Source of the DNA: a bacterium
Lineage (GTDB): Archaea > Thermoproteota > Bathyarchaeia > 40CM-2-53-6
Length of the DNA stretch: 64,000 nucleotides
NCBI GenBank assembly: GCA_021323995.1
Contig: JAJPJY010000066.1
Coordinates: 10,458-74,457, forward strand
Direction of reading: 5' to 3'
Shown: in pieces, positions 2,618 to 33,919 of the stretch
How the letters are laid out: the number at the start of each line of letters is the position of its first letter
Position numbering within the stretch: the stretch's first letter is position 1
Translations under genes and position numbers: made by a program
The notes under the pieces: generated by a model
Database searches by the model: none
Told to the model about the DNA's origin: nothing
What the model saw: only the letters and a program-made list of their open reading frames with translations

Positions 2618-3513
2618 GAGTCATGGGCCTCCTTCCCAGTGCTCTCACGCCCTCTCCCATTCAGCAAGAGGCCAATCATCAAGAAGGCACTTAACAAGAA
2701 TCCAAAGAGAATGACCGGTAGCAGATCAGACTCCCGAACATCACTTTTCTTCCATGCCGTAACTTCCCGGAGTGGATTCATCCGCTTGATTGAAATCAGG
2801 GGATTCTTTGAAGCATACCCTAGGTAGTTCGACGAGTAATACATGCTCCGATTCACTAGTCCCCTCAAATCGACGGGAGAACCCAGATGCCACTCTGTTG
2901 CTCCCGAATACGCCATCTTGAAATCATTCAGGAGAAATCTTCTATGAAAATCGAGATCTTCCCCAGCAAAGAGGTCCGTATCGAAGCCCCCGAGACGATC
3001 AAACGAATCTCTTCTAACGAATCTGGCAGCGACGTTCAGGGGGTCGTGTGAGAGAAGCTTTCTTCTCGATGCGACGAGGCGCGATATCATGGAATTCCTT
3101 ACGATGTCCTGATCATTTACCAGGACGGCGTCGGCATTATCGATCATCTTAACGCAGGTCGTGATTACATTAGAGCCGAGTACGTGGTCAGCATCTACGA
3201 AGTAGAGATACTTGCCCTTCGCGCATTTCGCTCCCAAGTTCTTGGCCACAGATCTCTCGCTACGATGGGAGATCACTAGTGCTCCCATACTCTTGGCGAT
3301 TTCTCTCGTCGAGTCAGTGCTGAAACAGTCTACAACGATGATCTCGATTGGCCTATATGATTGCGAGATTATTGATCTCAAGCACTCCGCAATCGTCCAT
3401 TCCGAGTCTCTTGAAGGGATAATTATTGACACGAGGGGCGGGTCATCGAAGTTGGAGACCCGGAATTCCTTGTCAGGAGCTAAACCATCTGCTCCCTGAG
3501 TTTCTTTGAGCAT
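2614..3513 (-). CDS. Glycosyltransferase family 2
   Basis: IIIPSRDSE...VVDCFSTDST...FVDADH (DxD-type) GT-A signature. Translationally coupled on both sides. Confidence 0.75.
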   Translation of the reverse strand: MLKETQGADGLAPDKEFRVSNFDDPPLVSIIIPSRDSEWTIAECLRSIISQSYRPIEIIVVDCFSTDSTREIAKSMGALVISHRSERSVAKNLGAKCAKGKYLYFVDADHVLGSNVITTCVKMIDNADAVLVNDQDIVRNSMISRLVASRRKLLSHDPLNVAARFVRRDSFDRLGGFDTDLFAGEDLDFHRRFLLNDFKMAYSGATEWHLGSPVDLRGLVNRSMYYSSNYLGYASKNPLISIKRMNPLREVTAWKKSDVRESDLLPVILFGFLLSAFLMIGLLLNGRGRESTGKEAHDS

Positions 3514-4817
3514 TAAGATACACCGAGAATTCTGCCTACGCCGATAATCACAATCCAGAAGTATGCTTGAAGATAAAGTAACACAGTTAGAGGCACCACT
3601 TCTAATCTAAACGACTTGAGTTTTTTGGAAAAAGAGTAACCACAAAACATTAGGATCATTGTTGTAGTCATGACAGCGTAGAGAAAAACGGAACCAGGAA
3701 CGCTTTCAATGTATTCAAGAATGAATGCGGTGCTGCTTCCGATCAACATGTATGCGGTTCCCTGCAAAAGAGTGATTGTGAGAAATGTCGCGAACGTTCC
3801 AAACAGGTATGCAAAATACTGAAGCCCGATGCGTCCTGTGAGTGAACCATACAAGATCCCCATGGGAACGAGCCATAACAACCATTGAGGTTCTGAAGCA
3901 GAAAACAAGTTGAAAACTAATGCTGCTACAAGTGTCCACTTCACGAGAAGTAGTGACGGCAACCCTTTCGCTCTACTGGATTCGTAGGAAAATCCGATGC
4001 AAGTCAACGCCACCGCAACTGGGATCGTAGGCAGGATTCCACTGGGATTAATGTTGAACACCTCTCCTAGGAGGCCATAATGCGTTCCTCCAGTCCCGCT
4101 ACTCAACCCAATGAAACGATAAACTATCACTTGAAGAAAGGACTGAAAGCCTCCAAATAAAAGCACCGGGAATAGTATGGCAACCGTGATGCCTAGGCCG
4201 CCAAGAATTTCTAACGGAAGTTCGCCGCGAAAACGCCGATGGATAATCGATTCACAAATAACTAACACATAGGTAACAAACCCGAAGAGCTTCAGGAGCC
4301 CAGAGAGGACAAAAGTAAGACTCGAAGGGGTTCTGTTATTATGAGTCGCGAAGAAGTATAGTCCTAACAGTAGAGGAAAGAGCATCATAGAATCATACGT
4401 CCCCCACACCGACGACAGACAGATTGGAAGTGGATTCAAGAAGAAAAGTGTCGCGGGAATGAGTTTCCGAGTGTAGCTCAACAATACTAGGTAGATGCCC
4501 ACATCGCATAATATCGAAGGTAGTTTCAAGAACACGCCCTCGATCATCAACGTTGTATGGTAATAGTACTGAAAATCGGGCATTCCAGAGAGTCTCAGTA
4601 ATTGATAGGGAGCGTAGAACAGTAGCTGGATGTAATATACCGCTGGAAGTGTAGGAAAATATTTCAGGTCGACGGTGCCGGTTTGGAAGAACAGCCGCTG
4701 AGACGTTACGAAGAGTGCCATGTCGCCGGGATGGCCGGTCAACGGTGCGAGTCCAAGTCGTATTGCTAGTCCTGAGAGAAGGACCGAGCTAGCTGGCTTG
4801 GTTAGTTTCATGCGCAA
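3513..4817 (-). CDS. Polytopic membrane protein, GT-C-like glycosyltransferase or flippase candidate
   Basis: More than 10 predicted hydrophobic helices. 1-nt overlap with the GT2 gene. Sits in a glycosylation-type operon. Confidence 0.4.
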   Translation of the reverse strand: MRMKLTKPASSVLLSGLAIRLGLAPLTGHPGDMALFVTSQRLFFQTGTVDLKYFPTLPAVYYIQLLFYAPYQLLRLSGMPDFQYYYHTTLMIEGVFLKLPSILCDVGIYLVLLSYTRKLIPATLFFLNPLPICLSSVWGTYDSMMLFPLLLGLYFFATHNNRTPSSLTFVLSGLLKLFGFVTYVLVICESIIHRRFRGELPLEILGGLGITVAILFPVLLFGGFQSFLQVIVYRFIGLSSGTGGTHYGLLGEVFNINPSGILPTIPVAVALTCIGFSYESSRAKGLPSLLLVKWTLVAALVFNLFSASEPQWLLWLVPMGILYGSLTGRIGLQYFAYLFGTFATFLTITLLQGTAYMLIGSSTAFILEYIESVPGSVFLYAVMTTTMILMFCGYSFSKKLKSFRLEVVPLTVLLYLQAYFWIVIIGVGRILGVS

Positions 4818-5943
4818 ACAACCTTGATACCAAGATCACTATGGCCACAGGGGTCACAAAGAGAAAAGTGAGATAGTAGGCGAGAATAATACCTGGATCA
4901 ATATTAGTTGGCGTAGAGATTAGGGGAGCTTGGCTTAGATATCGTACTGAGAAACCTCCCAGTTGGAATGATAGAAACGATCCTTTACTCGGAGATAGAA
5001 TAATCGAGAATGTGTTGTTGCCAGTCAGGAATGGAGGATAACTCCTTATGTTGCTCGCCGAAAAAGTTGCGATATTGTACGTTAGCGAGTTGGCTGAATA
5101 ATCGTACCCCTGCCCGATGACCGTTAGGCCATGCATGAAGTAAACGGTGTAGACAAGGTCCTGCGTTCCCTTGACGTAGTAATCTATGTATCCCTGAGCG
5201 AAGTTGCTGTCTGTGTAATCCAGATCGTTTGTAGCATTCAGGGTTAAGGCTATTCCATCCATGCTACGTAGAACCTGACTAGCGGAATCGAAGGCGTACT
5301 GATTTGGGGAGACGACGGCTATCCGGTACACATCTAGAGCGAACTGCCCTATTTGGCCAGCCGTGGCTTCAATGTAGAATTGTAGACTCGTTATGCTGGA
5401 CCCTGCGGCTGGGAAGATTCCGTTGACCTTGTATGCTTCTACAGCAGCGTTTACTGTGAAGTTCTCCTTGTGGCCGAGTCCGCTTCTATGTTGCAGGTAT
5501 GATGATTCAGACCAGGCCTGAAACGGGTTGCCGGAGCTATCCTGTCCTGCTATCCTGATCCCGTAGTGGATTCCTACGCTTGCTTCTAGAGAGATTAAGA
5601 GCACGGGATCTTGTGCTATGGAGAAATTCACTGATCGGAACAGGTTTACGGCTTGAGGGTATGATTCTGGCGCAATGCTGGCATTCAGATGCAGTTCTCC
5701 GTCTGATGATAGACGAGACGTTATGTTTGACTGAGAAGAACTAACGTGCCATTGAGAGGGATCATTAAGCGGGTCTTGCCAAATCGTATTGTTGAGTCTA
5801 ACGTAGTAGGAAGATTCGAGGCTGTTCAGGTTAGAAGCGTTTAGAATGGTTGTTTGATCGATCTTGCCTCTAAGAACTACGACCATGCTTGCCATTACAA
5901 CAATGGCTATGACAAGCAGAGCATACAGATTCCTAGATCTCAA
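4789..5943 (-). CDS. Membrane-anchored extracellular protein, N-glycosylation sequon-rich
   Basis: N-terminal TM (LYALLVIAIVVMASMVVVL), many NxS/T sequons, C-terminal TM helix. Confidence 0.4.
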   Translation of the reverse strand: MRSRNLYALLVIAIVVMASMVVVLRGKIDQTTILNASNLNSLESSYYVRLNNTIWQDPLNDPSQWHVSSSQSNITSRLSSDGELHLNASIAPESYPQAVNLFRSVNFSIAQDPVLLISLEASVGIHYGIRIAGQDSSGNPFQAWSESSYLQHRSGLGHKENFTVNAAVEAYKVNGIFPAAGSSITSLQFYIEATAGQIGQFALDVYRIAVVSPNQYAFDSASQVLRSMDGIALTLNATNDLDYTDSNFAQGYIDYYVKGTQDLVYTVYFMHGLTVIGQGYDYSANSLTYNIATFSASNIRSYPPFLTGNNTFSIILSPSKGSFLSFQLGGFSVRYLSQAPLISTPTNIDPGIILAYYLTFLFVTPVAIVILVSRLFAHETNQAS

Positions 5944-7273: not shown

Positions 7274-8773
7274 CTAGATGAGAAGTATACCCTGCAACGC
7301 GTAGTTCGCAATCACGGTCATGAGCAGAGTCAGTACGAGCCCTGGCCACCGGATGCTCTTCGTTCCTACCACGGGAACAAGAATGACTGTTGCGAATGAC
7401 GTGAGAACCGGAATTGGTAAGTCATAGAGAATGCGTGCCTGGCTATAGCTGTCGAGTACGAGGAAGGGTATGGATGGCACAGCAACCCAAAGGAGCAGTA
7501 GCCGTTCGAACGGATCTCTGAACTTGAGAAGAAAGGCGGCCAATAGTCCCAGTCCCAAGATAAGCCAATCTGCCAGTAGTCCCCCGTGAGTGAAGAGCAA
7601 GGCCTCGACTAGGTTGTTCCAGAAACCTAGCAAAGATCCCAGCCCTGCGGGGCTCTTTGTCGCTATGTCTGCTGCCACGGTGCGGGTCGCGAAGACCCAG
7701 CTCTTCGCAACGTCAAGGATCACTCCGGTTGCGACGATTCCCATGATCGATATTACATGGATTGATTCCTGGGTTTCTCTCCAGAGGGTGATTGTATAGA
7801 CGAGCGCCACTGCGGCGACTAGGACCCATGTCCATGGGTGTGTAAGAAACAGGGCGATTGAGAGAAAGTACATCGCCATATAGCTGAAGGACCTAGGTGC
7901 TTTCGAGAAGATCAGTAGGCTTGTCATGAAGAGATAGACGAGGATCAAAGCGAGCCAGTTAGCATAGTAGCCACCCCACAACCCAACCGTTGAATAGAAC
8001 GAGAAAGAAGTGGATAGTCCGGTCAGCCCAGCAACGTTTGAACTGCCATGCCCGTACCGGACGAATACGTACGCTGAGAGTGTCAGCGCTGGAGCAAAGA
8101 TCATTGGCAGGTACTCGATAATTTGCGAGGGTGACGATCCTGCAGAGGCAAGGAGGTACAACGGGATCAACAGGAAGGGCCTGGACCCCTCCAGCCCCTC
8201 AACGAAAGAGTACTGTAATGCTTGCGGCAAAGGCCGGGCAAGCATCTGGCCAATCCAGCTGACATAGAGAGGGCTGTCGACTCCAACTAAGGCCCGCGTC
8301 GGATTTAGATCAGGCCGATACGGAATGAAGACAAGTAAGATGCTTACAACGAGGCTGACGACTATCATTAGCCTGGGACGAGACAGGGTCTTCAGGCTGT
8401 TGGCAGATTCGGACAGAGATGCATTCTTTACTGATGACACAGTGTTCTGAAAGGGTTCCGAGAGAAACCTTAGGAGCTTGTTGAACCTTGCGGACCGACG
8501 ACGTGTCTCTCGGGTCCCGAGCCTGACCACCCATGCATAAAGAACACCTGGTAGGAATGCTGTCGAGAGGGGAGCGAGGAAGGTGTAGATGCTCATGTTG
8601 AGGGCCGCGAACCCCATGTCCGGAATGTAAGGGAAGAACGCGAGAATTGATAGAACAATAACCTCGTATGCTAGGAGGCCGATGACGATTGTGGCGCCGA
8701 CGCTTTGACGAGCTGTCATCAACCGGCTCGATAAAACTGAGAATGGACCGTTTTTATGCTTCAACGCAACCAC
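7274..8773 (-). CDS. Polytopic integral membrane protein (glycosylation-cluster associated)
   Basis: About 12 hydrophobic helices and no soluble domain. First gene of the minus-strand cluster. Confidence 0.45.
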   Translation of the reverse strand: MVALKHKNGPFSVLSSRLMTARQSVGATIVIGLLAYEVIVLSILAFFPYIPDMGFAALNMSIYTFLAPLSTAFLPGVLYAWVVRLGTRETRRRSARFNKLLRFLSEPFQNTVSSVKNASLSESANSLKTLSRPRLMIVVSLVVSILLVFIPYRPDLNPTRALVGVDSPLYVSWIGQMLARPLPQALQYSFVEGLEGSRPFLLIPLYLLASAGSSPSQIIEYLPMIFAPALTLSAYVFVRYGHGSSNVAGLTGLSTSFSFYSTVGLWGGYYANWLALILVYLFMTSLLIFSKAPRSFSYMAMYFLSIALFLTHPWTWVLVAAVALVYTITLWRETQESIHVISIMGIVATGVILDVAKSWVFATRTVAADIATKSPAGLGSLLGFWNNLVEALLFTHGGLLADWLILGLGLLAAFLLKFRDPFERLLLLWVAVPSIPFLVLDSYSQARILYDLPIPVLTSFATVILVPVVGTKSIRWPGLVLTLLMTVIANYALQGILLI

Positions 8774-11999: not shown

Positions 12000-13514
12000 A
12001 TGTCTGAAAATCTTCGCGATGCAATAGGAGTGATATTGGAAGCAGGTTTTCAGATAGAATCGGACGCGTTCAAGACCCTGGTCCAGTTCGGCCGCGCAGA
12101 GACCCTGAGGCCGCTTATTGATGAAGTGTTGAAGGTGGCAGGCTCTGTTGAGCCTAGGCCCTTGTTCATCAGCTCGGACCTTGTGTTGAAGGCGGTCGAG
12201 AAGCTAGAGCTGATTGGGAACAGGCAACCCGAGGCAGGGACAAGCCTCGGAGCGGAGCGGCGTTTTGCCCAGGAGTACGAGGCGCGGCTGGAGGTCGTGT
12301 TTGATCCGACCGGAAAGTTGGGGACGACAGGGGTTTTCGACGATTTTCTCCACTACTTCCGTAGCCGGTTTGAGAAAATGAGCGCATTGTTTCGCCAGAG
12401 AATCGACACTCGGAGCGGTGGGACGATTGCCGACGCGTTGGCTTCTGGTGCGAACGGTCGGGGCCGCTTCGTCTGTATGGTGGTGGATAAGCGGGAGCGG
12501 GATAATCGGATCTTTCTGACGGTCGACGATTATGATGAGGAGGCGGTGGTGCTAGTGACTGATGCTAATCCGTCTTTGTGGCAGACTGCGCGGCGTTTGT
12601 CTCGTGACCAGGTCTTGTTCTTGGAGACTCGGAAGAGTTCTGGGAAGCTGTTAGTGGCTGAGAATATTGTCTTGCCGGAGATTCCTGAACATCGTCCGGG
12701 CCGGGCACAGGAGGAGGTCTACGCTGTTCTATTATCAGATGTCCATGTGGGAAGTAAAGTCTTCATGGAAGACGAGTTCAAGCGAGTCTTGGGCTGGCTA
12801 CGGGGCCAAGTGGGTGATCATAGCCAGCGCGAGATCGCGGACCGGGTCAAGCATGTAATAATCGGCGGCGATCTCGTGGACGGGATTGGAATCTATCCGC
12901 GCCAAGAAGTGGACCTGAAGATCCCGGATATCTACGAGCAATATCGTCTCGCCTCAAAATTTGTCGAGGAAATTCCAGAGCACATGGAAGTCATTCTGAT
13001 TCCTGGGAATCATGATGCTGTTCGCCAGGCGTTGCCCCAGCCGAGAATCCCACGGGATTTTGCTGGGCCCGTCTACGAGGGTCGGAAGGTTGTGTCTCTG
13101 GGTGATCCGTCTGAAGTACGCTTGGACGGTGTTGATTTTCTGCTCTTTCATGGGACTAGCTTGATGGATATTATTAGCGCGGTTCCGGGTTTTGATTATC
13201 GGCGTCCGGTGGAGGTTATGGAGTATCAGCTTCGTGCGCGGCATCTGGCACCGGAGTATGGGAAGAACACTCCCATTGGACCAGAATTGGAAGATTGGCT
13301 TGTAGTGGAGCATGTCCCGGACGTGTTCATCTCGGGCCATGTTCATGTGCCCGGCTCGGGTGCATACCGGGGGACGACGATTGTTAACGGTGGCGCATGG
13401 CAGGGACAGACGGACTACCAGAAACGCATGGGACTGGTGCCACAGCCGGGATTGTTGCCCGTGATCAATCTACAATCGTTGCAAGTACGCATGATAGACT
13501 TCCGTTCGGGATAG
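12000..13514 (+). CDS. dp1: DNA polymerase II (PolD) small subunit DP1
   Basis: Calcineurin-like phosphoesterase motifs HVIIGGDLVDGIG, IPGNHD, GHVHV. About 504 aa, typical of DP1. Confidence 0.88.
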   Translation: MSENLRDAIGVILEAGFQIESDAFKTLVQFGRAETLRPLIDEVLKVAGSVEPRPLFISSDLVLKAVEKLELIGNRQPEAGTSLGAERRFAQEYEARLEVVFDPTGKLGTTGVFDDFLHYFRSRFEKMSALFRQRIDTRSGGTIADALASGANGRGRFVCMVVDKRERDNRIFLTVDDYDEEAVVLVTDANPSLWQTARRLSRDQVLFLETRKSSGKLLVAENIVLPEIPEHRPGRAQEEVYAVLLSDVHVGSKVFMEDEFKRVLGWLRGQVGDHSQREIADRVKHVIIGGDLVDGIGIYPRQEVDLKIPDIYEQYRLASKFVEEIPEHMEVILIPGNHDAVRQALPQPRIPRDFAGPVYEGRKVVSLGDPSEVRLDGVDFLLFHGTSLMDIISAVPGFDYRRPVEVMEYQLRARHLAPEYGKNTPIGPELEDWLVVEHVPDVFISGHVHVPGSGAYRGTTIVNGGAWQGQTDYQKRMGLVPQPGLLPVINLQSLQVRMIDFRSG

Positions 13515-15323: not shown

Positions 15324-17866
<2,543 letters not shown>

Positions 17867-17999: not shown

Positions 18000-20246
18000 T
18001 TACGAAAAATCGTATGGAATAATGCGGTCTAGGTCTCGCTTTCTCGCGTCTGACATCAGGTCTACGGGGCGCATGTTTCCGCCCAGCTTCGCCAAGACTG
18101 TCAAATGTTCGAATCCGCAATTCTCGCATCTCGCCCGAACTCCTACGCTCGTGTTGTAGCATCGTCGACACCTTGAGTAGAACGAGGAGAACGTGAAGTA
18201 TCGGACCCCCGCCTCTGCCAACTGTTTTGAAGCTCTGATTAGAGAAGATCTGTCGGCCTTGTGTCCTATCAAGAGTGGGAGTATCGAGCCTCCGTCGAAG
18301 ATTCTCTGGAGTTCTCCTTCGATAGTCGCCCTAGTTGCGATCGGAACTTTCTGGGTAAGTGGAATTACAGGTACGTCATTGTAGTACGGATATTTCTTGG
18401 ACCCTTGATAGACCACGGTTGAGAACCCGTACTTCTCGGCATCTATAGAGGCAAACCGCGCTGCGGCCTCGGGTGAGGCATGGACTCCAACTCTTATTCT
18501 GATATCACGAGCGTCAGCCTCTGCTACTGCTCGCCGCGCAGCCTCGACGATCTTCCCGGAAAAAGCTGCGCTTGATTTCTCCCAGATATCATTCTGAGTG
18601 TGATACTTGACCGCCTCCGCTAGTCCAAGCAAACCAATCTCTCCGTGTGCTCTTTGTGGGTCGTAGTAGTTTGCTCCGTTTGCTTGCCATGCTAAGAGTG
18701 GTAAGACTCCTTCAGACACCCTATCGTTGATAGCTTGTTGTTTGAGTTGCAGAGCCTTTACTGCTTCCAAGGTTCCAGCCTGGACTGCTTGTAGGAGTCG
18801 CTCGTCCTTTCTTGAGGATTCGTAGGCAGTTCGGGGTAGGTTAAGCTGGACGGTTCCCACAATGGCACCTGCGCCTTTCGTCCAGTCTCTGTCCTCGGCA
18901 AGAATCGGTCCTTCGGATGATGTCGAATAGTTGTGCTCGAATGGCTGGATGAGAAAGTTGGGAACCGAATATTTGGCTGAACTTTCGAATGCGAGGTTGA
19001 GAAGCTCGTCGGTGGATTCCATCTTACGATCGTGGGTCCGTACGATGATTGATGGATTTAGGACGGGCTGTTGACGCCCGATTTCTAGGCATGCATCGAT
19101 TATTGTTGTGAAAATCTCTTCGGCTTCTCTTGAAAAGTCACCATAGATTCCTTCACTCTTTCCGCTTGGACCAACCGCCTCGAGGTTCTGAAGATGAATC
19201 GGGACCTGGTGATCGAGGCCTATCGAGACTCGGGCTGGTATTGTGTTGGAGAGTCCATCCCAGTTGAGGTCATTGATGAACCGCGTGATTGCTTCTTGGA
19301 CCCGCTGGCGTGGAAGTCCCCTGATGAATGGTGAAAGGATGATGTTGAAGTGGTCGAAGACCTGTTCGCTCGAGACTTCACGTTCGGCGGCTCGAACAAT
19401 CTTTAGCAGGGACCCGAGAGCATCTTCAAGCGACGAGGGAGGACTAGTGGAGGGGGCTCCCTTATGGAGGAAGAGCCTCGCTTCATGGAAGAATATGCTA
19501 GGTTTCAGGAACCATGATGATGCATTTTCGAGATGTAGTTGTCCGGAAAGATGAGCGTCGACGGTGGCTCTCGGGAGACTGTTCATCAAGACGTACTCTT
19601 CAGTGACTCTTTGTCCAGCGGATTGTTGGACCCAGCTCGCGTCGAATTGTTTCTGACCAGCCTCGCGTAAGAGGACTGTTACGTCGTTAACGGGCAGTCC
19701 CAACCGGGTGAGTTTGTGGCGATACTCCTCCAGTTTTCTCTCGATAAGAATAACGTTGACCAGTTCTCGGACTAGTGGGCCGCTTAGGTAGATGATCCCG
19801 AATTTGAGGAGTCTGTCTTCAGCTTCTGCAGCGACCTCGTCTGCAAGGGTTTGGGGCATTCCCGCCTCTGTTAGGAGGGACCGGGCGATCCTGGTGCGGT
19901 CGAACTCTTCGATAGTCATGCGGGAAGTACGGACGAACATCCGCCCACGTTTTACTGCAATGTACTCCTCTAGGTCACGGGAGAACTCGACGAGTATCTT
20001 CCCAAGATCAGTGATGCTGTACTTTTTCGTGCCTTTTTCGATCGAAATCAGGCCGGCCTTCCCTAGCGTCTTGAGATGGTAGACAAATTTGCCTGCGTCC
20101 CGTACGGGATCGAGCTTGACCTCGTACATCATTTCCGTGTAAGGGAGCGGGCCTTTCGAGACGAGTAGCTTGAGAACATGCAGCCGGACGGGCGCGGAGG
20201 CAGCGTCGAGAACGTCAGAGCTGAAGCGTTCGTAGGATCGCTGCAA
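18000..20246 (-). CDS. wHTH + ATP-cone protein with NrdD-like large domain and C-terminal CxxC..CxxC zinc ribbon. Probably not a catalytic ribonucleotide reductase.
   Basis: N-terminal ArsR-like wHTH. ATP-cone (MFVRTSRMTIEEFDRTRIARSL...). HLSGQLHLEN resembles the NrdD HxHD region. C-terminus CRRCY...CENCG. Only one Cys outside the ribbon and no RVxGY glycyl-radical motif. Confidence 0.45.
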   Translation of the reverse strand: MQRSYERFSSDVLDAASAPVRLHVLKLLVSKGPLPYTEMMYEVKLDPVRDAGKFVYHLKTLGKAGLISIEKGTKKYSITDLGKILVEFSRDLEEYIAVKRGRMFVRTSRMTIEEFDRTRIARSLLTEAGMPQTLADEVAAEAEDRLLKFGIIYLSGPLVRELVNVILIERKLEEYRHKLTRLGLPVNDVTVLLREAGQKQFDASWVQQSAGQRVTEEYVLMNSLPRATVDAHLSGQLHLENASSWFLKPSIFFHEARLFLHKGAPSTSPPSSLEDALGSLLKIVRAAEREVSSEQVFDHFNIILSPFIRGLPRQRVQEAITRFINDLNWDGLSNTIPARVSIGLDHQVPIHLQNLEAVGPSGKSEGIYGDFSREAEEIFTTIIDACLEIGRQQPVLNPSIIVRTHDRKMESTDELLNLAFESSAKYSVPNFLIQPFEHNYSTSSEGPILAEDRDWTKGAGAIVGTVQLNLPRTAYESSRKDERLLQAVQAGTLEAVKALQLKQQAINDRVSEGVLPLLAWQANGANYYDPQRAHGEIGLLGLAEAVKYHTQNDIWEKSSAAFSGKIVEAARRAVAEADARDIRIRVGVHASPEAAARFASIDAEKYGFSTVVYQGSKKYPYYNDVPVIPLTQKVPIATRATIEGELQRIFDGGSILPLLIGHKADRSSLIRASKQLAEAGVRYFTFSSFYSRCRRCYNTSVGVRARCENCGFEHLTVLAKLGGNMRPVDLMSDARKRDLDRIIPYDFS

Positions 20247-20299
20247 GAAAGGGTCCTTCGCCTCAGCGGGCGACCCCTGTTTAAAAAAGTAGTGTGAAA

Positions 20300-20659
20300 C
20301 TACTCGATGATTTTCAGGTTCTTCAACGGGACCCAGCCTGTTTCATCGGTCATGTTGGTGACCCAGGCCCAACCGCTTTCGACTTTCTCTATTCTGACTA
20401 TCTCGCCCTCCATCACGGTCACTTCGCTTGCTTCGTAGTTCTGTTGTGCGACCGCACTGTCAGCGCCTATCTTGATACTGTTTTCCGGGACCCATCCTTT
20501 CTTCCCACTGTGGCTTTCACAGAACACCCATCCAGGCCATTCCACATCGATTCGCTTCACTATCTTTAGCTCGTCGCCGGTTTTCATGATTAATGGATCA
20601 GGATACTGCTTGTCGTAGCTGATGGCTACTAGCGCCATCGTCCCGGAATCGCCCTGCAA
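20300..20659 (-). CDS. Tandem SH3-like domain protein
   Basis: Two repeats of the pattern GDELKIVK..WPGWVFCES..GKKGWVPENSIK and GEIVRIEKVESGWAWV..GWVPLKNLKII. Confidence 0.45.
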   Translation of the reverse strand: MQGDSGTMALVAISYDKQYPDPLIMKTGDELKIVKRIDVEWPGWVFCESHSGKKGWVPENSIKIGADSAVAQQNYEASEVTVMEGEIVRIEKVESGWAWVTNMTDETGWVPLKNLKIIE

Positions 20660-20754: not shown

Positions 20755-21990
20755 CTATAGCTGGATGGACAGTTGGGGGAGTGTCTGATAGTTTGGCTCG
20801 ATCTCTGTCTTGGTCCATTTGGGAATTAGGTTGTCGACGGTCTTCAAGTATTCCCTGCTGTCGTAGCTCCATCCTTTCTCGTCATTGTATTCTTTGTGGG
20901 AGAATGTTTGCGATTCGATGGTCATCGGATCGATGACCAGGTAAGAATAATTCGTGAGAACTCCCTTCGAGACCAGCAATGAAAGGAATGCGAATAGGTT
21001 GCTGACTTCGACTTGGGGCAAGTATATTCTCACTGTCATCGAGTTGAGTCCTGTTATTCGAGAATAGCTCTGGACTATGGGAAGATCAGGTAGTGCGTTT
21101 TCAACAGCTCGCATTGAGCCTTCACTCTTGAAATCTAGCCGTGCATCTATGAGTTTGGAAATTTGTGGGGCAAAGGGCAACAGGTCGATCACGTATTCCT
21201 GTACGAGACCGCGTGCGACCAGCTTGTCGAAGCGATATTTTGTTGCGGGTAAAGTAAGTCCGAGAAGCTTTGACAAATCCGCCAGGGTCGTTCTTGCATC
21301 TTTGGCAAGTTCCCTTAGAATTACAAGGTCTCGCTTATCGAAACTGTCCGTCTGAGTCGACTGTCTAGTTGCCTCGGTCTTGGCCCGAGTTGTTGTTAGC
21401 TTGTCGAGCCACCCTCTCCAGTCGAACTTCCACGAATGGTCCTTCGGCTTGAAATAGTCAAAGTTCGTCAATGGAAAACCAGCATCGCCTAGCCAGTACA
21501 CACGGTATTTTTTGATAACCCCACGTTCGACGAGCTGTTCGAGATACAGCTCGAAATCATGCCGGTTCGGCGTAGGGACGGCATGTTGCGAATAGTATCC
21601 GTTAGTGTCCCCTAGGCAGCGGGCGATTTTCAGCCAGAAGCCAGGAACCTTGAGCGCTTCCCTTGCGAAAACCTCTTTGCCAGGATGAGGAGTTGCCAGA
21701 ACGACTGCGCGGCTCAATCCGATCTTCGAATAATTTGGATAAACCCAGGTCTTTAGAACTCCCTGGCTCTCAAGTTTCGTCACACGATTATAGACGGTAG
21801 TGTAGGGTAACTTGGCCTTCCGGGCGATTTCCAACAGGTTTCTCGGACCATGTTGTTTCATGGTTCTCAAGATCGTCACGTTTTCCTCGTCAAGGAGAGA
21901 GACTATTCTATGTACACTGTCAAAGTAGTCATCTGCACTGATCGTACTCAAGGGAAGTTCTGAACGAGCCGCAGGTCCTGTGCTTTTCAA
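20755..21990 (-). CDS. Transcriptional regulator with two Lrp/AsnC-type wHTH domains
   Basis: Two HTH segments: ILRTMKQHGPRNLLEIARKAKLPYTTVYNRVTKLESQGVL and ILRELAKDARTTLADLSKLLGLTLPATKYRFDKLVARGLV. Confidence 0.5.
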   Translation of the reverse strand: MKSTGPAARSELPLSTISADDYFDSVHRIVSLLDEENVTILRTMKQHGPRNLLEIARKAKLPYTTVYNRVTKLESQGVLKTWVYPNYSKIGLSRAVVLATPHPGKEVFAREALKVPGFWLKIARCLGDTNGYYSQHAVPTPNRHDFELYLEQLVERGVIKKYRVYWLGDAGFPLTNFDYFKPKDHSWKFDWRGWLDKLTTTRAKTEATRQSTQTDSFDKRDLVILRELAKDARTTLADLSKLLGLTLPATKYRFDKLVARGLVQEYVIDLLPFAPQISKLIDARLDFKSEGSMRAVENALPDLPIVQSYSRITGLNSMTVRIYLPQVEVSNLFAFLSLLVSKGVLTNYSYLVIDPMTIESQTFSHKEYNDEKGWSYDSREYLKTVDNLIPKWTKTEIEPNYQTLPQLSIQL

Positions 21991-22672: not shown

Positions 22673-22767
22673 GGGGCGGTGGTCCAGACCACCATAGTGG
22701 GGACAGCTTGGTCTAAGATACCTGGCTCGGGCCCAGGTGATCGTGGGTTCAAATCCCACCCGCCCCA
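22673..22767 (+). tRNA. tRNA-Pro (anticodon CGG) with a putative 19-nt non-canonical intron in the D-arm (between positions 13 and 14)
   Basis: Acceptor ggggcgg/ccgcccc with discriminator A. Anticodon arm cctgg-ctCGGgc-ccagg (U33, G37). 5-nt variable loop. T-arm gtggg-ttcaaat-cccac. Removing 22686..22704 gives a 76-nt cloverleaf with D-loop agcttggtcta. CCA not encoded. Confidence 0.6.
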
Positions 22768-23019
22768 CTATTACAATCCTGCCGTTTCCAAGGAACGGCA
22801 AAACACACATCGTTTCACATCCGATCTAGCCTTCGTTTCGGACTCTATGCGCCTCCTCAGAATCTTGAATTTTGCAAGAGACGTTATCTGATCATATTAC
22901 AGTCTCCTACCGCTGGTCGTAACACAATCTTCATCCTCGTTGTTTTCCTCTTTTCATTTTGTTAAGCCGCTTCAGGCTGGCTGGCGAACTATTCGCGAAA
23001 CGGATCCACGAGGGCACTG

Positions 23020-25351: not shown

Positions 25352-26038
25352 CTACTTGAAGATCCAACCAGTTTCCTTAGACCAGAACAACAGATCAAGA
25401 TCTGCCATAGGTATTCGTATCTCTGCGGAAAACCGTCGCAGTTTCTCCTCAATCTCTAGGTAGCGTTTCTTTGTCAAGGAAATCGGTATTTCTGGAATGA
25501 TTCCGAGACTTGCCAAGTTGCGCAGAATATGTCGGTCCAAGATTGCGAACCCTTCTCCAAGTCCTATGTTTCGGAGGAAATGGCTGGCTTCCTTGTAGCC
25601 TAGTCCCTTGACGTTCTCGACCAGCCATTCGCGCAGTTCGAAAGGGTTGTAGAAGCTCTCGATCTTCGCCTTCAGTAGAAGACCTCCATCCCTGGTAAAC
25701 ATGTCCCTAGCCTCTACAATGTACCGCGCCTTGCTCTCTCCAAACCTAACCTGGTTAAGATAGGGTCCGAGATCGGCTGGCGTGCCTTTCAAGAGAAGTT
25801 TTTCTTGTTTTAGCTTTGAGACTGCGGCCCAGCACACCTTGGCAGATGATTGAGGGGTTAGGAGACAGAATGCAAGTTCGCCGAAGACATCTTCATCGCT
25901 CCACTGCATTACTTGTTTGAATTCCGACAGCCGCTTCCCAATCGCGTCTTTCCTCTCTAGATACAACGATTGAAGCGTCTGGATCTGATCCTCAGAACTT
26001 CCGACCGTCATCTGTGCGCTAGAACTGTTTGAGAACAT
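25352..26038 (-). CDS. ogg: 8-oxoguanine DNA glycosylase / N-glycosylase-DNA lyase (archaeal Ogg-type HhH-GPD)
   Basis: HhH-GPD region GLGYKEASHFLRNIGLGEGFAILDRHI. Size of about 228 aa fits the archaeal Ogg2 family. Confidence 0.65.
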   Translation of the reverse strand: MFSNSSSAQMTVGSSEDQIQTLQSLYLERKDAIGKRLSEFKQVMQWSDEDVFGELAFCLLTPQSSAKVCWAAVSKLKQEKLLLKGTPADLGPYLNQVRFGESKARYIVEARDMFTRDGGLLLKAKIESFYNPFELREWLVENVKGLGYKEASHFLRNIGLGEGFAILDRHILRNLASLGIIPEIPISLTKKRYLEIEEKLRRFSAEIRIPMADLDLLFWSKETGWIFK

Positions 26039-26495
26039 CTGTCTTTTCCATTATTCTTGAGCAGTAGAAGCATCTTAGCCTCAGAGGATCTTGCCGTTCA
26101 ACCATGAAAGTTGGCTCTACTGGTTCTCCCGCGTTCGAGACACATGCAGGATTGGCGCATCTAACGATTCCTCTTATTGAGCTCGGGAGCTTGACACGTG
26201 TCTTTTCGGCCACCTCATAGTCTCGAATAATGTTGATTGTTGCTCCTGGTGCGATGAGGGCTATCTTGTCAACCTCTCCTGGCTTCAGCTCCCTATTTTC
26301 AACCTTGACAATGTCCTTCTTACTATCTGTCTTTGATGGAACGTTCATTGCCACACTGACAATATCCCCCTCTCCTCCGCCGATCCTGAGAATTTTCAGA
26401 ACGTCGAGGGCATGCCCGGCGGAGATATGGTCGATGACGGTGCCGTTCCGGATCTTTTTGACGTAAAGATCTTTGACACCGACCATCTTTGACAA
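26019..26495 (-). CDS. pyrI: Aspartate carbamoyltransferase regulatory subunit
   Basis: YVKKIRNGTVIDHISAGHAL N-domain and C-terminal zinc site CANPACV...CFYC. Confidence 0.85.
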   Translation of the reverse strand: MSKMVGVKDLYVKKIRNGTVIDHISAGHALDVLKILRIGGGEGDIVSVAMNVPSKTDSKKDIVKVENRELKPGEVDKIALIAPGATINIIRDYEVAEKTRVKLPSSIRGIVRCANPACVSNAGEPVEPTFMVERQDPLRLRCFYCSRIMEKTDVLKQF

Positions 26496-26936: not shown

Positions 26937-28181
26937 GTGTCACAGCAAGGTTTGGATCTTATCTTCGAACAAGTACTGTCTGGCGGTCAGATCTTCAGGG
27001 ACAGAAATCTTCTCAGACACGACTACATGCCGGCGAGCCTTCCTCACCGTGAGGAACAGATCAAAAGGCTTGGATCCGTCCTAGCACCGGCTCTTTCCAA
27101 AGAGCGGGTGTCCAACCTTTTCGCTTATGGAAAGACTGGAACTGGCAAGACGATTGTTGCCAAGTTTGTCCTGGACAGGTTGCAGAAGAAGGCGAGGGAC
27201 TATGGCAGGGCTGTTGATACGAGCTATGTGAACTGTCGGCTTGCTGGGACGAACTATCGAGTTATCGCTGATCTCTGTCGCGGCCTTGGCCAGGACGTGC
27301 CGTTTACTGGATTGGCGGTAGGAGAGTTGTTTGATCGGCTGCGGGAGGCTCTGCAGTCGCGCGGTTCCGCATTCCTTGTTGTCTTAGACGAGATTGACGC
27401 CTTGGTCAAGAGGAGTGAGGATGATAGTCTTCTCTACGAACTTACTCGGATTAACGAGAGACTGGATGGAGGGTGGATAGGCGTGATCGGGATTTCAAAT
27501 GATCTTCATTTCAAGGATTTCCTGGATCCTCGCGTCCTGAGTTCTTTGGGAGAGGAGGAGCTAGTCTTCAAACCGTACACATCTGATGAGTTGTACGACA
27601 TTTTGAAGGGTCGCGCGGAGCAGGCTTTCCAGCCAGATGTATTAAATGATGGCGCGCTACGCCTCTGTGCTGCCTTAGCGGCTGGAGAGCATGGCGATGC
27701 GAGGAGAGCCCTGGATCTTCTAAGAGTCGCGGGCGAGATAGGCGAACGGTCGAGAGAGAAGAATGTTCTAGAGTGTCACGTACGTATGGCGCAGCAGAAA
27801 GTGGAACACGACAGAGTGACGGAGGTCCTGTCCTCTCTGCCTCTTCATTCTAGAATTCTCCTTATCTCTGTGATGAATTTGGAGAGTTCTCGGAAGGAGA
27901 GTTCTGTAACGGGTGATGTGTACGAGGTCTATCGGGAGTTGTGCGGGGCTGCCGCGATCGAATCATTGACACAGAGGAGGATCAGCGGTCTCTTGAACGA
28001 GCTGGACATTATGGGTATCATCAACGCACGAGTCGTGAGTTTTGGGCGGTATGGTCGGACGAAAAAGATTCGTCTCGGGGTTGAGCCTCGCGTTGTGAGC
28101 TCGGCTTTTGGAACCGATGAGCTTGTGAAGGGGCTACTGGGGCATATGCCGCGTGGTCTTACAGGTCAGCACGTTCACTAG
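26937..28181 (+). CDS. cdc6: Orc1/Cdc6 replication initiator
   Basis: GTG start. DYMPASLPHREEQIKRLGSVL...FAYGKTGTGKT Walker A, AAA+ core and C-terminal winged helix. Confidence 0.9.
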   Translation: MSQQGLDLIFEQVLSGGQIFRDRNLLRHDYMPASLPHREEQIKRLGSVLAPALSKERVSNLFAYGKTGTGKTIVAKFVLDRLQKKARDYGRAVDTSYVNCRLAGTNYRVIADLCRGLGQDVPFTGLAVGELFDRLREALQSRGSAFLVVLDEIDALVKRSEDDSLLYELTRINERLDGGWIGVIGISNDLHFKDFLDPRVLSSLGEEELVFKPYTSDELYDILKGRAEQAFQPDVLNDGALRLCAALAAGEHGDARRALDLLRVAGEIGERSREKNVLECHVRMAQQKVEHDRVTEVLSSLPLHSRILLISVMNLESSRKESSVTGDVYEVYRELCGAAAIESLTQRRISGLLNELDIMGIINARVVSFGRYGRTKKIRLGVEPRVVSSAFGTDELVKGLLGHMPRGLTGQHVH

Positions 28182-29374: not shown

Positions 29375-30493
29375 TCATCCGTGACAGTTATGGCAGAGCG
29401 GAGTCTTGTTGATGACTCCCTTAGTGGTTACGCATTCGGTGCAAAGATGTTTTCTGCAAGAGTTGCAGAGACGCATATGTTCTTCGCATACGACCGCTCC
29501 ACAGTCTTCGCAGACGGCTCTCGTTGGGCTCTCGCAGAGAGTACATTTCCGGGTCTCATCCCAGATCATCTTCCCCGTGGCGCCCTGCAGGATCTTCCGG
29601 TAGGCCCTGTTTCCAGCCTGAAGCTCAACCGTAACTATTGGAATGTGAAGAAGTCGAATGCTGGAAATAGTGACATCATCAGGATGAGCGTTCGACTCTT
29701 GCAGTAGGATATTCGCTACCTTGGCTCTGATCGATTCCTCGCCGGCAGAAGCGGGTGCTACGGTTACACTGTTCTTCATCTGCAGCTCCTGAGGAAGCTT
29801 AGGCATCGAACCGATCGAGGGCTCGATCTCTAAACAGTCGAGGAATAATCCAGAACCAGGTAGATTCTTTAATTGGCCTTCGAAAAGTCCAGCATCGCAC
29901 TCCCGACCGTCCACTCCATCGAAAACGATTATGCCGCGCGCGATTTTCTTCTTGCTCTGCGCAAGAGCGAAGTCGGCAAAGTAGTAGGGGCGGAACTCGA
30001 GCTTCGGCATAGAAGCAAGACGGAGTGCCTTTCCATTCTCAAGACCATGCGCAAGAATCTGAGAGGCAACCGCCCGGGAGACTGGTAGGGTCCCGGGGAC
30101 CCTGTCCCGTTCAGGAGGCTTGATCTTCTCGACGCGTTCCTTGAGTCTAGCGATGTCCCACAGCTCTACTCCATACTTTCTCGCCATGAACTCGGCGTCT
30201 CCCGTGAAACCTTTAGGTGAGACATAGATTCCACTTGGCAGCCCGCCATTCTTCAGTCTCATAGCGAAGCCTTCTACCTCGCGACCGTTCACTTGACGGT
30301 CGCCTTCCCAGCATTCAAAAGCGATTTTCTGGGTTTTTTTCCCCGATTTCTTTGAAGCGACTATGTCGACAACACGAGAATTCGACTGGTCCGCCTGAAC
30401 GTTTTTCTCTACATCGAATCCTTCGATGCGACAGACGTCGCAGACCATGTCGACTACAAAATTGTTAGAGTCTCGACTGGTCTGAGCGGCCAT
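29375..30493 (-). CDS. Restriction-endonuclease-like (Mrr-cat-type PD-(D/E)xK) protein with C-terminal cluster of four CxxC zinc ribbons
   Basis: N-terminus VVDIVASKK...IAFECWEG...GIYVSPKGFT resembles an Mrr catalytic core. C-terminus CTLCESP..CEDCGAVVCEEH..CNSCRKHLCTECV..CHNCHG. Confidence 0.5.
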   Translation of the reverse strand: MAAQTSRDSNNFVVDMVCDVCRIEGFDVEKNVQADQSNSRVVDIVASKKSGKKTQKIAFECWEGDRQVNGREVEGFAMRLKNGGLPSGIYVSPKGFTGDAEFMARKYGVELWDIARLKERVEKIKPPERDRVPGTLPVSRAVASQILAHGLENGKALRLASMPKLEFRPYYFADFALAQSKKKIARGIIVFDGVDGRECDAGLFEGQLKNLPGSGLFLDCLEIEPSIGSMPKLPQELQMKNSVTVAPASAGEESIRAKVANILLQESNAHPDDVTISSIRLLHIPIVTVELQAGNRAYRKILQGATGKMIWDETRKCTLCESPTRAVCEDCGAVVCEEHMRLCNSCRKHLCTECVTTKGVINKTPLCHNCHG

Positions 30494-32509: not shown

Positions 32510-32692
32510 AAAAGAGCTTCCCTTATGCGAGTAACCATCGCAGTGAAAGCAGTCTGGTCAGATCGTCGTCATTTTCCAGTTCTTCCAGTGGAAAACCATG
32601 GCTGTACCCCATCGTTCCAATACCTGAATGCCCGGCTGTTGGTAACACAACACCCGCCCGTCCGGACTTCGTGGTTTTCGTGGAGAACAAGC

Positions 32693-33919
32693 ATGGAGAG
32701 AGATATCTCCGCGAAAGGTTGGGTCAACCAGGCTACAGAAGCGGCTACTCAGACTATCCGTATCCGCGTACTCCGAGTATGGGCTACTGCCAACGGTTGG
32801 CTCAAGATAGACCACCCTTCGAGTGCCGATATCTACATGGCGGCAGAAGAAGGGGTCGATGAGATCAATTCGAACGCTGTAAGTCTCTACGACGCCGCGA
32901 ATCGGATGCTGTCCTCGATGATGAAACGGGGATTAGGAGCATCCAACTCTGCCAGCTACTACCGGGGCAGACTAGCCGAGTTCATGAAATGGGCAAAGCT
33001 CGGTGTGGACGACACAGATTGGGACGTGTCGGTCAAGAAGATACACCGTATCGTCAGGGACGCTGGAAACCTCGACGCCAAGGGCGTAAAGTCGATGATC
33101 ATCGGGGCACGCTCCAAAAAGGGCAAGGCCCTAGTCAGCTTCGTCGCGAATACTGGCTGTCGTCCGAGCGAGGCCCTCCTTACCAAGATTTCTGATCTTG
33201 ACTTGACAAAGACACCAGCGCGTGTCCACTTCAGGGCAGAGATCACCAAGACCAGACGAGATCGATACTCGTTTCTCAGCACAGAGTGTATGAGCTTGTT
33301 GAAGGATTATTGGGGCGACAGAAAGACCGGCTACATCTTCGAGGGTCAGAAAGAGGGAACTCCAACCGACAAGTCGTCCGCTTGGGAGATGCTTCATCGG
33401 ATCATCGAAGAAGCGGGTCTGCTGGGAGAGAAGGGCGAGACTGGCACTTTCGAGATCAAACCGTACACTTTCCGAGCTTTTGCCGAGGGGGTCATGACGA
33501 CCTGTGGTATGCCGGAGAAATGGATCGACTGGTTGGTCGGGCACGGTTCAGGGGTCAAGGAACACTACCGACAGAGCGGAGTGTTCGACCGAGACATCGC
33601 CCCGGCTTGGCAAACAAAATGTAACTCAGCTTTCTGCTTCATGGCTGACACAGCTGAGACAGTCCTGAGTCTCAAGGAAGAATTAACGGAGCTGAAGAAG
33701 GGGATCGAAGTGGACAGGCAGATCATCGAGGAACAGTTTCTCAAACCGGGTATGAACGCCCCGAATCTTGGGGTCAGCACGCCACGTCCGAAGTTTGAGA
33801 CTAAGAAGATCGACAGCTCGAACGAAGAGTCTCTGGAGAAAGCTGTGGCAGAGGGATACGAACCAGTGCCAGGACTGGCGGTCAACGGGCACATCTTCCT
33901 CCGGAGAAAAGTCGCATAG
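32693..33919 (+). CDS. int: Tyrosine recombinase / integrase (start uncertain; ORF open from 32525, alternative ATG at 32837)
   Basis: TGCRPSEAL (box I Arg), KPYTFRAF, WLVGHGSGVKEHY (H..R...Y catalytic tail). Confidence 0.8.
   Translation: MERDISAKGWVNQATEAATQTIRIRVLRVWATANGWLKIDHPSSADIYMAAEEGVDEINSNAVSLYDAANRMLSSMMKRGLGASNSASYYRGRLAEFMKWAKLGVDDTDWDVSVKKIHRIVRDAGNLDAKGVKSMIIGARSKKGKALVSFVANTGCRPSEALLTKISDLDLTKTPARVHFRAEITKTRRDRYSFLSTECMSLLKDYWGDRKTGYIFEGQKEGTPTDKSSAWEMLHRIIEEAGLLGEKGETGTFEIKPYTFRAFAEGVMTTCGMPEKWIDWLVGHGSGVKEHYRQSGVFDRDIAPAWQTKCNSAFCFMADTAETVLSLKEELTELKKGIEVDRQIIEEQFLKPGMNAPNLGVSTPRPKFETKKIDSSNEESLEKAVAEGYEPVPGLAVNGHIFLRRKVA

Follow-up and report, generated by a model that had tools for sequence, protein, structure and literature searches.

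Here we show that a gene in the archaeal assembly GCA_021323995.1 (Thermoproteota, Bathyarchaeia, 40CM-2-53-6) encodes a 748-amino-acid (aa) protein in which a winged helix-turn-helix (wHTH) domain and an ATP-cone are followed by an NrdD-like core that has lost the catalytic residues of class III ribonucleotide reductases (RNRs). The gene (18000..20246, minus strand, with a TTG start in the open reading frame (ORF) list) lies in a 64,000-nucleotide stretch of contig JAJPJY010000066.1 (positions 10,458 to 74,457), referred to below as the window, which supplies the coordinates of all features unless a locus is named. The gene is under strong purifying selection, and its relatives adjoin intact RNR genes with which they have promoter motifs in common. 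The protein is probably an autoregulated, NrdR-like transcriptional regulator of RNR genes, built from a pseudo-NrdD.

The control of RNR expression in archaea is largely unknown, and NrdR is essentially bacterial, with archaeal representatives listed for a few haloarchaea only and not reported in Thermoproteota (PMC3019208, PMC2795772). A dedicated regulator universally linked to nrdJ in thaumarchaeal metagenome-assembled genomes (MAGs) would, if true, give a handle on the homeostasis of deoxyribonucleoside triphosphates in abundant soil and ocean archaea. The source annotations of the family contradict one another (“anaerobic ribonucleoside-triphosphate reductase (formate)”, “ArsR family transcriptional regulator” and “helix-turn-helix domain-containing protein”), and thousands of database entries are mislabelled with the first of these names. 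Since the presence of NrdD is read as a sign that an organism is capable of anaerobic life, such labels can distort conclusions on the metabolism of Bathyarchaeia and Thaumarchaeota. No description of the family was found in the searchable literature, papers on RNR phylogeny, RNRdb and NrdR included.

Domain architecture and loss of catalytic residues

An earlier note, made from the sequence alone, had proposed a wHTH, an ATP-cone, an NrdD-like domain and a C-terminal ribbon for this protein, and this architecture is borne out by Pfam matches, by the scores of relatives and by the topology of an AlphaFold2 model. Public metagenomes hold, on record, a 748-aa protein 100% identical to the ORF product (the query) together with hundreds of close relatives. 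The N-terminal wHTH (aa 11-94; 19965..20216, minus strand) is matched at these residues by the models DUF7347, HTH_45, HTH_20 and HTH_5, each slightly below threshold in the query (26.3 against a cut-off of 27.6 for DUF7347, 18.3 against 27 for HTH_20). In the relatives P0166, P0214 and P0240 wHTH models exceed the Pfam threshold, with P0166 reaching 41.5 bits for DUF7347, 32.1 for HTH_20 and 33.7 for the ATP-cone. Predicted helices at 19-31, 36-42 and 51-63 and strands at 67-69 and 75-78 give the H-H-H-beta-beta topology of a winged helix, in which DAGKFVYHLKTL is likely to be the recognition helix; R21, L28, G52, H57, Y76 and G82 are among the wHTH residues that are invariant in the family alignment.

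Next comes a divergent ATP-cone (aa 103-178; 19713..19940, minus strand), matched by PF03477 at residues 103-175 with 19.5 bits against a cut-off of 25.8, and with 33-38 bits, above threshold, in relatives. The AlphaFold2 model has a hairpin (strands 104-106 and 112-114) and four helices here, as expected of the ATP-cone fold, and the cone roof reads V105-R-T-S-R109 in place of V-x-K-R-D-G. Residues of the query were mapped onto the ligand positions of the P. copri NrdD cone (K7, R8, Y83, R87 and R91; PMC11226230); in the C-terminal helix of the cone and in the linker, the query retains Y175, R176 and R181. This cone-to-core linker, YRHKLTRLGLPVNDV... (19632..19712, minus strand), is nearly invariant in Bathyarchaeia and Thaumarchaeota, as judged from family consensus sequences.

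The remainder of the protein is a catalytically degenerate NrdD-like alpha/beta-barrel core with its C-terminal domain (aa 206-738; 18033..19631, minus strand), recognised by PF13597, TIGR02487 and Foldseek; the PF13597 match at residues 206-738 passes the Pfam threshold (4e-52, 178 bits). The AlphaFold2 model, for which 29 diverse family members served as input, has a mean predicted local distance difference test score of 87.2 and a predicted template modelling (TM) score of 0.75. When it was compared with the PDB by Foldseek, class III RNRs, those of T. maritima, P. copri, S. thermophilus and T4, filled the top 36 places (E 3e-25 to 1e-15, target-normalised TM about 0.7, identity 14-19%), and class I RNRs and other glycyl-radical enzymes ranked far below. 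The likeness to class III RNRs, for which the earlier note had called for structure prediction, extends to the modelled fold, and the core as predicted is a true NrdD fold. Near its end stands a Cys4 zinc ribbon, C693-x2-C696-x10-C707-x2-C710 (18117..18170, minus strand), which aligns with E. coli C644, C647, C662 and C665 and whose cysteines are kept in 94-96% of full-length family members; its central spacing is ten residues and not the eleven first counted. The only further cysteine of the query is C386, in agreement with the claim of a single cysteine outside the ribbon.

The query reaches 170.2 bits with the NrdD equivalog model TIGR02487 against a cut-off of 326.35, and it falls below the cut-off of 8/8 NCBIfam NrdD equivalog models. 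Catalytic positions were located by alignment with the NrdDs of E. coli K-12 and a methanogen virus, and the query was then aligned with 115 representatives of clusters, drawn from 1.8 billion proteins by an exhaustive search. A residue audit set 54 full-length family members against eight canonical NrdDs, with the roles established for P. copri (PMC11226230) mapped via PDB alignments.

At the position of the first-strand active-site cysteine (E. coli C175, T4 C79, P. copri C171) the query has S250-I251 (19494..19499, minus strand), and a cysteine equivalent to C175 is found in 0/54 full-length members. The tip of the finger loop, where canonical enzymes carry the thiyl-radical cysteine in G-C-R (E. 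coli C384, T4 C290, P. copri C416), reads G446-P447-I448 (18903..18911, minus strand); SSEGPI stands here in 86/120 close homologues, and G-[L/S/T/N/V]-R in most relatives of the wider family. An alignment check for catalytic cysteines that might have been misjudged leaves both columns non-Cys. The glycyl-radical motif R-V-x-G-Y is represented by a degenerate remnant, K-L-G-G723-N (18075..18089, minus strand; aligned to the T. maritima, E. coli and PhiF1 NrdDs). The motif itself is absent, as had been stated, but Gly723 does occupy the radical-glycine column, which had been missed. K[LY][GA]G[NR] is kept at this site by 105/120 close homologues; across the family the column is unconserved (G, A, S, T, N, D or P, with 24% Gly), and the tyrosine of the next column is present in 2%.

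The sites for substrate and effector are similarly affected. The segment HLSGQLHLEN (residues 232-241; 19524..19553, minus strand) aligns as a remnant of NrdD AHxxGxIHxHD, in which HxHD, the triphosphate motif of P. copri NrdD (PMC11226230), has become H238-L-E-N; the second histidine is present in 2% of the family. The columns of the NxN flap (E. coli 117-119), placed after the linker in real enzymes, are gapped in 54/54 full-length members, the RGGQxF loop-2 region is deleted or unconserved, the specificity-site columns E. coli 269, 272 and 277 are conserved in 2-13% of members, and the equivalent of T4 N311 is substituted or deleted in query and family. Still present in the core are AHxxGxxH (partly), NLPR, GLxE, R597, D602, Y622, G652-G653 and the zinc ribbon; N469-L-P-R472 (18831..18842, minus strand; N in 100%, P and R in 94% of the family) is one of the few core motifs common with real NrdDs. 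The alignments strongly support a protein with an NrdD fold devoid of radical chemistry and of canonical nucleotide sites, in other words one that appears catalytically dead. The suggestion of a pseudo-enzyme made in the earlier note agrees with the loss of both active-site cysteines, the radical tyrosine, HxHD, NxN and loop 2, and with the intact NrdD that adjoins the gene in 8 Bathyarchaeial loci.

The opposite possibility, a genuine class III RNR with unusual chemistry or a radical relay, is effectively refuted. Database annotations as an anaerobic RNR, the retained NrdD fold and zinc ribbon, and the glycine at the radical position in the subfamily of the query are what such an enzyme would predict, but it would have to work with neither thiyl nor second cysteine, with no HxHD, loop 2 or NxN flap, and with a glycine column that the wider family does not conserve. 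The scores below all equivalog cut-offs and the intact NrdD or NrdJ next door in relatives also speak against it, as does the lack of an NrdG-like activase in the 64-kb window and in the thaumarchaeal loci; the sole weak NrdG-like match follows the canonical NrdD in locus L062.

Other degenerate forms were seen as well. A few members (L068 256-2574, L077 2975-5299, L082 185-2446, P0132 and P0152) keep the finger-loop cysteine, in ATGCR or SSGCR, and lack the first-strand cysteine and the radical glycine; such members adjoin intact NrdDs and look like evolutionary intermediates. NrdD-like proteins that have no wHTH (P0185, P0198, P0201, P0216, P0220, P0231, P0236, P0247 and P0258) have no equivalent of C175 and often no C-terminal radical domain; P0185 has two ATP-cones, and its glycine motif reads DTGHM. 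NrdDs may have lost activity on more than one occasion, or dead versions may also occur with other domain arrangements.

Distribution, selection and linkage to intact reductase genes

The wHTH / ATP-cone / pseudo-NrdD architecture is present in at least 563 confirmed stretches in GTDB species representatives, and the best 80 of these come nearly all from Bathyarchaeia or Hecatellales MAGs. A very large branch (4,821 proteins at E <= 1e-10, some with Tara Oceans sources) belongs to MAGs labelled Nitrososphaerales or Nitrososphaerota, and further members occur in Ca. Methylarchaceae, Ca. Terraquivivens and Caldarchaeales. Three contigs that carry the family gene among archaeal neighbours (L007, L037 and L050) are filed in Dormiibacterota, Acidiferrales and Methylomirabilota MAGs, labels that are probably due to binning contamination. 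The argument that an O2-sensitive enzyme could not work in an aerobic host was dropped, the named members being MAGs with no cultured ammonia oxidiser among them. Canonical archaeal NrdDs, such as that of Methanococcus vannielii, have two ATP-cones and no wHTH and score 480-570 bits with PF13597, against 56-224 bits for the family. Phage homologues are ordinary NrdDs only, at 20-23% identity.

Conservation is concentrated towards the N-terminus. Residues 21-185 (wHTH, cone and linker) contain 28/39 invariant columns, and VRTSR, SLVREAG.P, YLTAPLIRE.VNA.LIE and EEYRH.LTRLGLPVYDV recur in the thaumarchaeal consensus. The ratio of nonsynonymous to synonymous substitution rates (dN/dS) for the whole gene against close relatives is 0.05-0.09; against the nearest relative, L003, it is 0.028 for the wHTH, 0.027 for cone and linker, 0.112 for the core and 0.093 for ribbon and C-terminus, all values being approximate with dS near saturation. 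The gene is clearly functional and under strong purifying selection, and the wHTH and cone modules are the most constrained. Core identities are about 24% between family members and about 22% towards real NrdDs, and the derived N-terminal features VRTSR and YRHxLTRLGLPVYDV offer a better argument than a neighbour-joining tree of the core for what may be a single origin.

Constraint on the core would also be expected of a bifunctional protein in which the barrel had been remodelled for a new activity on nucleotides, non-radical and either catalytic or ligand-processing, alongside DNA binding, as in BirA, NadR or PutA. The core dN/dS of about 0.1 and the (near-)invariance of the polar core residues D230, H232, N301, N469, E544, R597, D602 and Y622 fit this explanation, but true NrdDs conserve most of them too, in a structural role or for the binding of phosphate. 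The low identity among family cores and the deletion of large parts or of the C-terminal domain in some members would moreover be unusual for an enzyme active site. We regard a bifunctional protein as quite improbable, and an unrecognised enzyme family, the alternative left open in the earlier note, is disfavoured.

A metagenome scan added 80 thaumarchaeal loci at 43-99% identity. Wherever a thaumarchaeal contig continues for 900 bp or more past the family gene (72/72 loci), the next gene downstream is a class II-type RNR on the same strand, at a median distance of 179 bp; the gene order is family gene, class II-type RNR, then convergent pyrB and pyrI. Among the Bathyarchaeial loci, NrdJ lies just downstream in 5 and canonical NrdD in 8. 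These eight NrdDs are intact, with C, CCR and R[V/I]TGYY present. The adjacent NrdDs score 532-569 bits with TIGR02487 against a cut-off of 326, and the adjacent NrdJs 550-776 bits with TIGR02504 against a cut-off of 400 (three thaumarchaeal examples tested). The dead paralogue, with an intact NrdD or NrdJ next door, thus occurs alongside the organism's real RNR, of either class, and is coupled to it in the genome. Adjacency in 72/72 thaumarchaeal and 13 Bathyarchaeial loci, together with the promoter motifs in common that are described below, supports the NrdR-like transcription factor that the earlier note had considered. In evolutionary terms, a duplicate of an essential radical enzyme would have lost its activity and taken on the regulation of the pathway from which it came, and the dead NrdD would outlive its parent where a B12-dependent RNR is now in use.

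Equally tight adjacency would be expected of a physical partner. RNR could be regulated at the protein level if the dead core or the cone bound to the NrdJ or NrdD encoded next door and, as a subunit, inhibited or chaperoned it; the wHTH would then serve protein contacts or be secondary. ATP-cones do mediate oligomerisation of real RNRs (PMC11226230), and purifying selection acts on a core in which no ligand site is obvious. The partners, however, are of two unrelated RNR classes, a fact that speaks against a single conserved interface. Conservation is highest in the wHTH, whose ArsR-like recognition helix is retained, and each of the two genes, family gene and RNR gene, has a promoter of its own, with motifs common to both. 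We consider protein-level control unlikely, and transcriptional regulation by the wHTH protein is the reading followed here.

Shared promoter elements and the proposed mechanism

In the window, the family gene is preceded by a putative promoter/operator element, TCACACTACTTTTTTAAACAGG (20276..20297, minus strand), which is conserved upstream of the family gene; its T-run starts 42 nucleotides before the TTG, inside the 53-bp gap that follows the upstream SH3 gene. The Bathyarchaeial form of the element, aAcTacAa-TTTTTT-AAAC, was found upstream of the family gene at 46/78 loci, whose proteins are 36-82% identical, and the pattern is gene-specific, as 32/36 matches in 1.16 Mb fall <=150 bp upstream of a family gene. 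The sequence TTTTTTAAA occurs once in the 64-kb window, at the family-gene promoter. A position weight matrix (PWM) trained only on other loci gives the window site 23.1 bits, the sole match of at least 12 bits in 64 kb. The best non-self matches of the PWM lie upstream of RNRs (26.1 bits for NrdD in L062; 20.1 and 14.7 bits for NrdJ in L063 and L070), and one of 28.2 bits lies just after the family gene in the truncated contig L058. The core TACA-N8(AT-rich)-WACA is present in 5/10 regions upstream of RNRs, 10/59 upstream of family genes and 4/554 other intergenic regions. Some RNR promoters (L063 and L070 12331-12365) and L058 (4607-4640) carry an extended element, ACTACAT7ATACATTTTTGTAG, in which two direct TACA repeats 12 bp apart are followed by an inverted TGTAG; this arrangement points to three or more half-sites and, perhaps, to an oligomer of higher order as the bound form.

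For Thaumarchaeota, an unbiased ranking of 6-mers placed TGTCAA/TTGACA first, with TGTCAA in 61/73 RNR promoters, 28/79 family-gene promoters and 18/192 control regions (p ~2e-23, a value inflated by relatedness). At locus L084, the protein of which is also known with Tara sources, there are exactly two copies of GTCAA-N6-TTGAC in 22 kb, one in the family-gene promoter and the other in the RNR promoter. Enumeration of exact palindromes finds GTCAA-N6-TTGAC in one thaumarchaeal sub-lineage only, and exact 9-mers common to both promoters of one thaumarchaeal locus are rare. In thaumarchaeal family-gene promoters the site lies directly after a TATA-like TTAAATA. This is the position at which archaeal repressors typically block the recruitment of polymerase. 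Some GC-rich palindromes upstream of the family gene are explained by the presence there of tRNA-like sequences (T-loop GGTTCAAATCC), which were seen in L083 (9757-9950) directly upstream of the family gene and in L084 (6040-6180) upstream of thyA.

In the mechanism that we infer, DNA binding, dimerisation, the identity of the ligand and the direction of regulation included, the NrdD-like core would dimerise as NrdD does and present two wHTH domains, which would bind a lineage-specific operator. The candidate operator is ACTACAa-TTTTTT-AAAC, with the core TACA-N8-wACA, in Bathyarchaeia and a set of sites containing TGTCAA in Thaumarchaeota; it would overlap or adjoin the TATA box of the family gene and also stand upstream of nrdJ or nrdD. 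Occupancy of the ATP-cone by nucleotide, relayed by the nearly invariant linker from cone to core, would alter the geometry or oligomeric state and with it DNA binding, a modulation postulated by analogy with NrdR (PMC9110341). On a wider scale, we see an evenly balanced case for the family as the missing RNR-specific master regulator of Bathyarchaeia, Nitrososphaeria and Caldarchaeales, which would be derived from NrdD, control NrdJ or NrdD by the balance of ATP and dATP via a remodelled cone, be convergent with NrdR, and represent the first RNR or glycyl-radical-enzyme fold used as a transcription-factor module.

Several observations weigh against a regulator of this kind. In the cone, T107-S108 stands in place of the canonical K-R phosphate-binding roof, with R106, which is invariant, on one side and R109 on the other, and nucleotide binding is therefore uncertain. 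The substrate and specificity sites of NrdD are degraded, and the core of about 500 aa has no explained role except as a scaffold. The Bathyarchaeial motif overlaps a TATA-like T/A run and is present in only about half of the adjacent RNR promoters, a different factor could bind the shared motifs, and the enrichment p-values are inflated by the relatedness of the loci to one another. There is no cultured host among the named members of the family, all of which are MAGs labelled only Nitrososphaerales or Nitrososphaerota. Finally, no RNR gene adjoins the family gene in the window and none lies within the 64 kb, where only pyrB is kept; the regulon of the window organism is therefore extrapolated from relatives.

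In the lineage of the window, the protein might accordingly serve another target, e.g. pyrB/pyrI or only its own gene, with the link to RNR being ancestral. The conservation of pyrB as a neighbour in 41 Bathyarchaeial loci would agree with this, as would a window that has no RNR and in which the only copy of the motif in 64 kb is the gene's own. Against such a change of target, pyrB is convergent and hence not co-transcribed, no motif is present in the pyrB or pyrI promoters examined, and lineages with an adjacent RNR have the operator and the N-terminal modules in conserved form as well. We assign this explanation a small probability, and control of RNR genes remains the preferred reading for the window as well.

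Neighbouring genes and comparison with known systems

Downstream of the family gene, the window contains a Na+/H+ exchanger gene and then the convergent pyrB, encoding the aspartate carbamoyltransferase catalytic chain (15615..16679, plus strand; Pfam OTCace_N and OTCace). The downstream, convergent position of pyrB is seen in 41/78 Bathyarchaeial loci, often with pyrI beyond it, and the synteny block of pyrB/pyrI with the family gene extends over Bathyarchaeia and Thaumarchaeota (L084 15014-16491, L016-L061); throughout the block, pyrB points towards the family gene or the RNR gene, and pyrI is transcribed away from pyrB. In the window, an ORF grouped by clustering with PyrI-like sequences has shifted upstream by about 6 kb (26019-26495, minus strand). 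Thymidylate synthase is also found near the family gene in loci L084-L086. Directly upstream of the family gene in the window lies the gene of a 119-aa SH3-domain protein (20300-20659, minus strand), and beyond it that of a 411-aa, Lrp-like protein with two wHTH/AsnC-type domains (20755-21990, minus strand); both are conserved in this position only in the closest relatives (L003, L006, L007 and L024).

Genes for a DP1-like small subunit of PolD (12000-13514, plus strand) and for Orc1/Cdc6 (26937-28181, plus strand) lie within about 8 kb on the two sides of the family gene, and these surroundings may be a replication-related neighbourhood or origin region. An Mrr-type restriction endonuclease (29375-30493, minus strand) and a phage-type integrase (32525-33919, plus strand) are encoded a few kb apart and may mark an integrated element; a tRNA-Pro gene is found at 22700-22768 (plus strand). 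Five large ORFs (384-867 aa; 39238-41331, 48489-51092, 7274-8773, 3513-4817 and 4789-5943, all on the minus strand) have no Pfam match at E <= 1e-4.

Among known proteins, the class III NrdDs of T4, E. coli, T. maritima and P. copri are the closest in build, with an alpha/beta-barrel, an ATP-cone N-terminal to the core, a Cys4 ribbon, and the motifs AHxxGxxH, NLPR, GLxE and GG in common. Unlike them, the family protein has an additional wHTH, no catalytic cysteine pair and no Gly-Tyr radical motif, and on these alignments its classification as a class III RNR, a group whose defining catalytic features it fails to show, is not warranted. Its N-terminal 90 residues match models of the ArsR/SmtB-type wHTH and DUF7347, but the metal-sensing ArsR proteins are small, with about 100-120 aa, whereas here the wHTH is the head of a 748-aa protein.

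Regulators of the MocR/GabR type combine a wHTH with an aminotransferase-like domain. They resemble the present protein in that a full-size enzyme fold is fused to an N-terminal winged helix and the gene stands beside the pathway genes that it presumably controls. They differ in that the fold recruited here is the glycyl-radical-enzyme/RNR barrel, in which the ligand sites of the parent are not conserved. We know of no previous description of this barrel as a transcription-factor module.

The differences from NrdR are considerable. NrdR binds DNA by an N-terminal zinc ribbon, whereas the family protein has an N-terminal wHTH and only a C-terminal, NrdD-derived ribbon; it carries a dead NrdD core of about 500 aa and is not homologous to NrdR as a whole; its cone roof has no K-R pair, and its putative operators are unrelated to NrdR boxes. 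Like NrdR, however, it has an ATP-cone and is linked to RNR genes of different classes, and its own promoter and RNR promoters carry a common element, consistent with autoregulation. With motifs unrelated to NrdR boxes, the likeness is one of analogy and not of membership.

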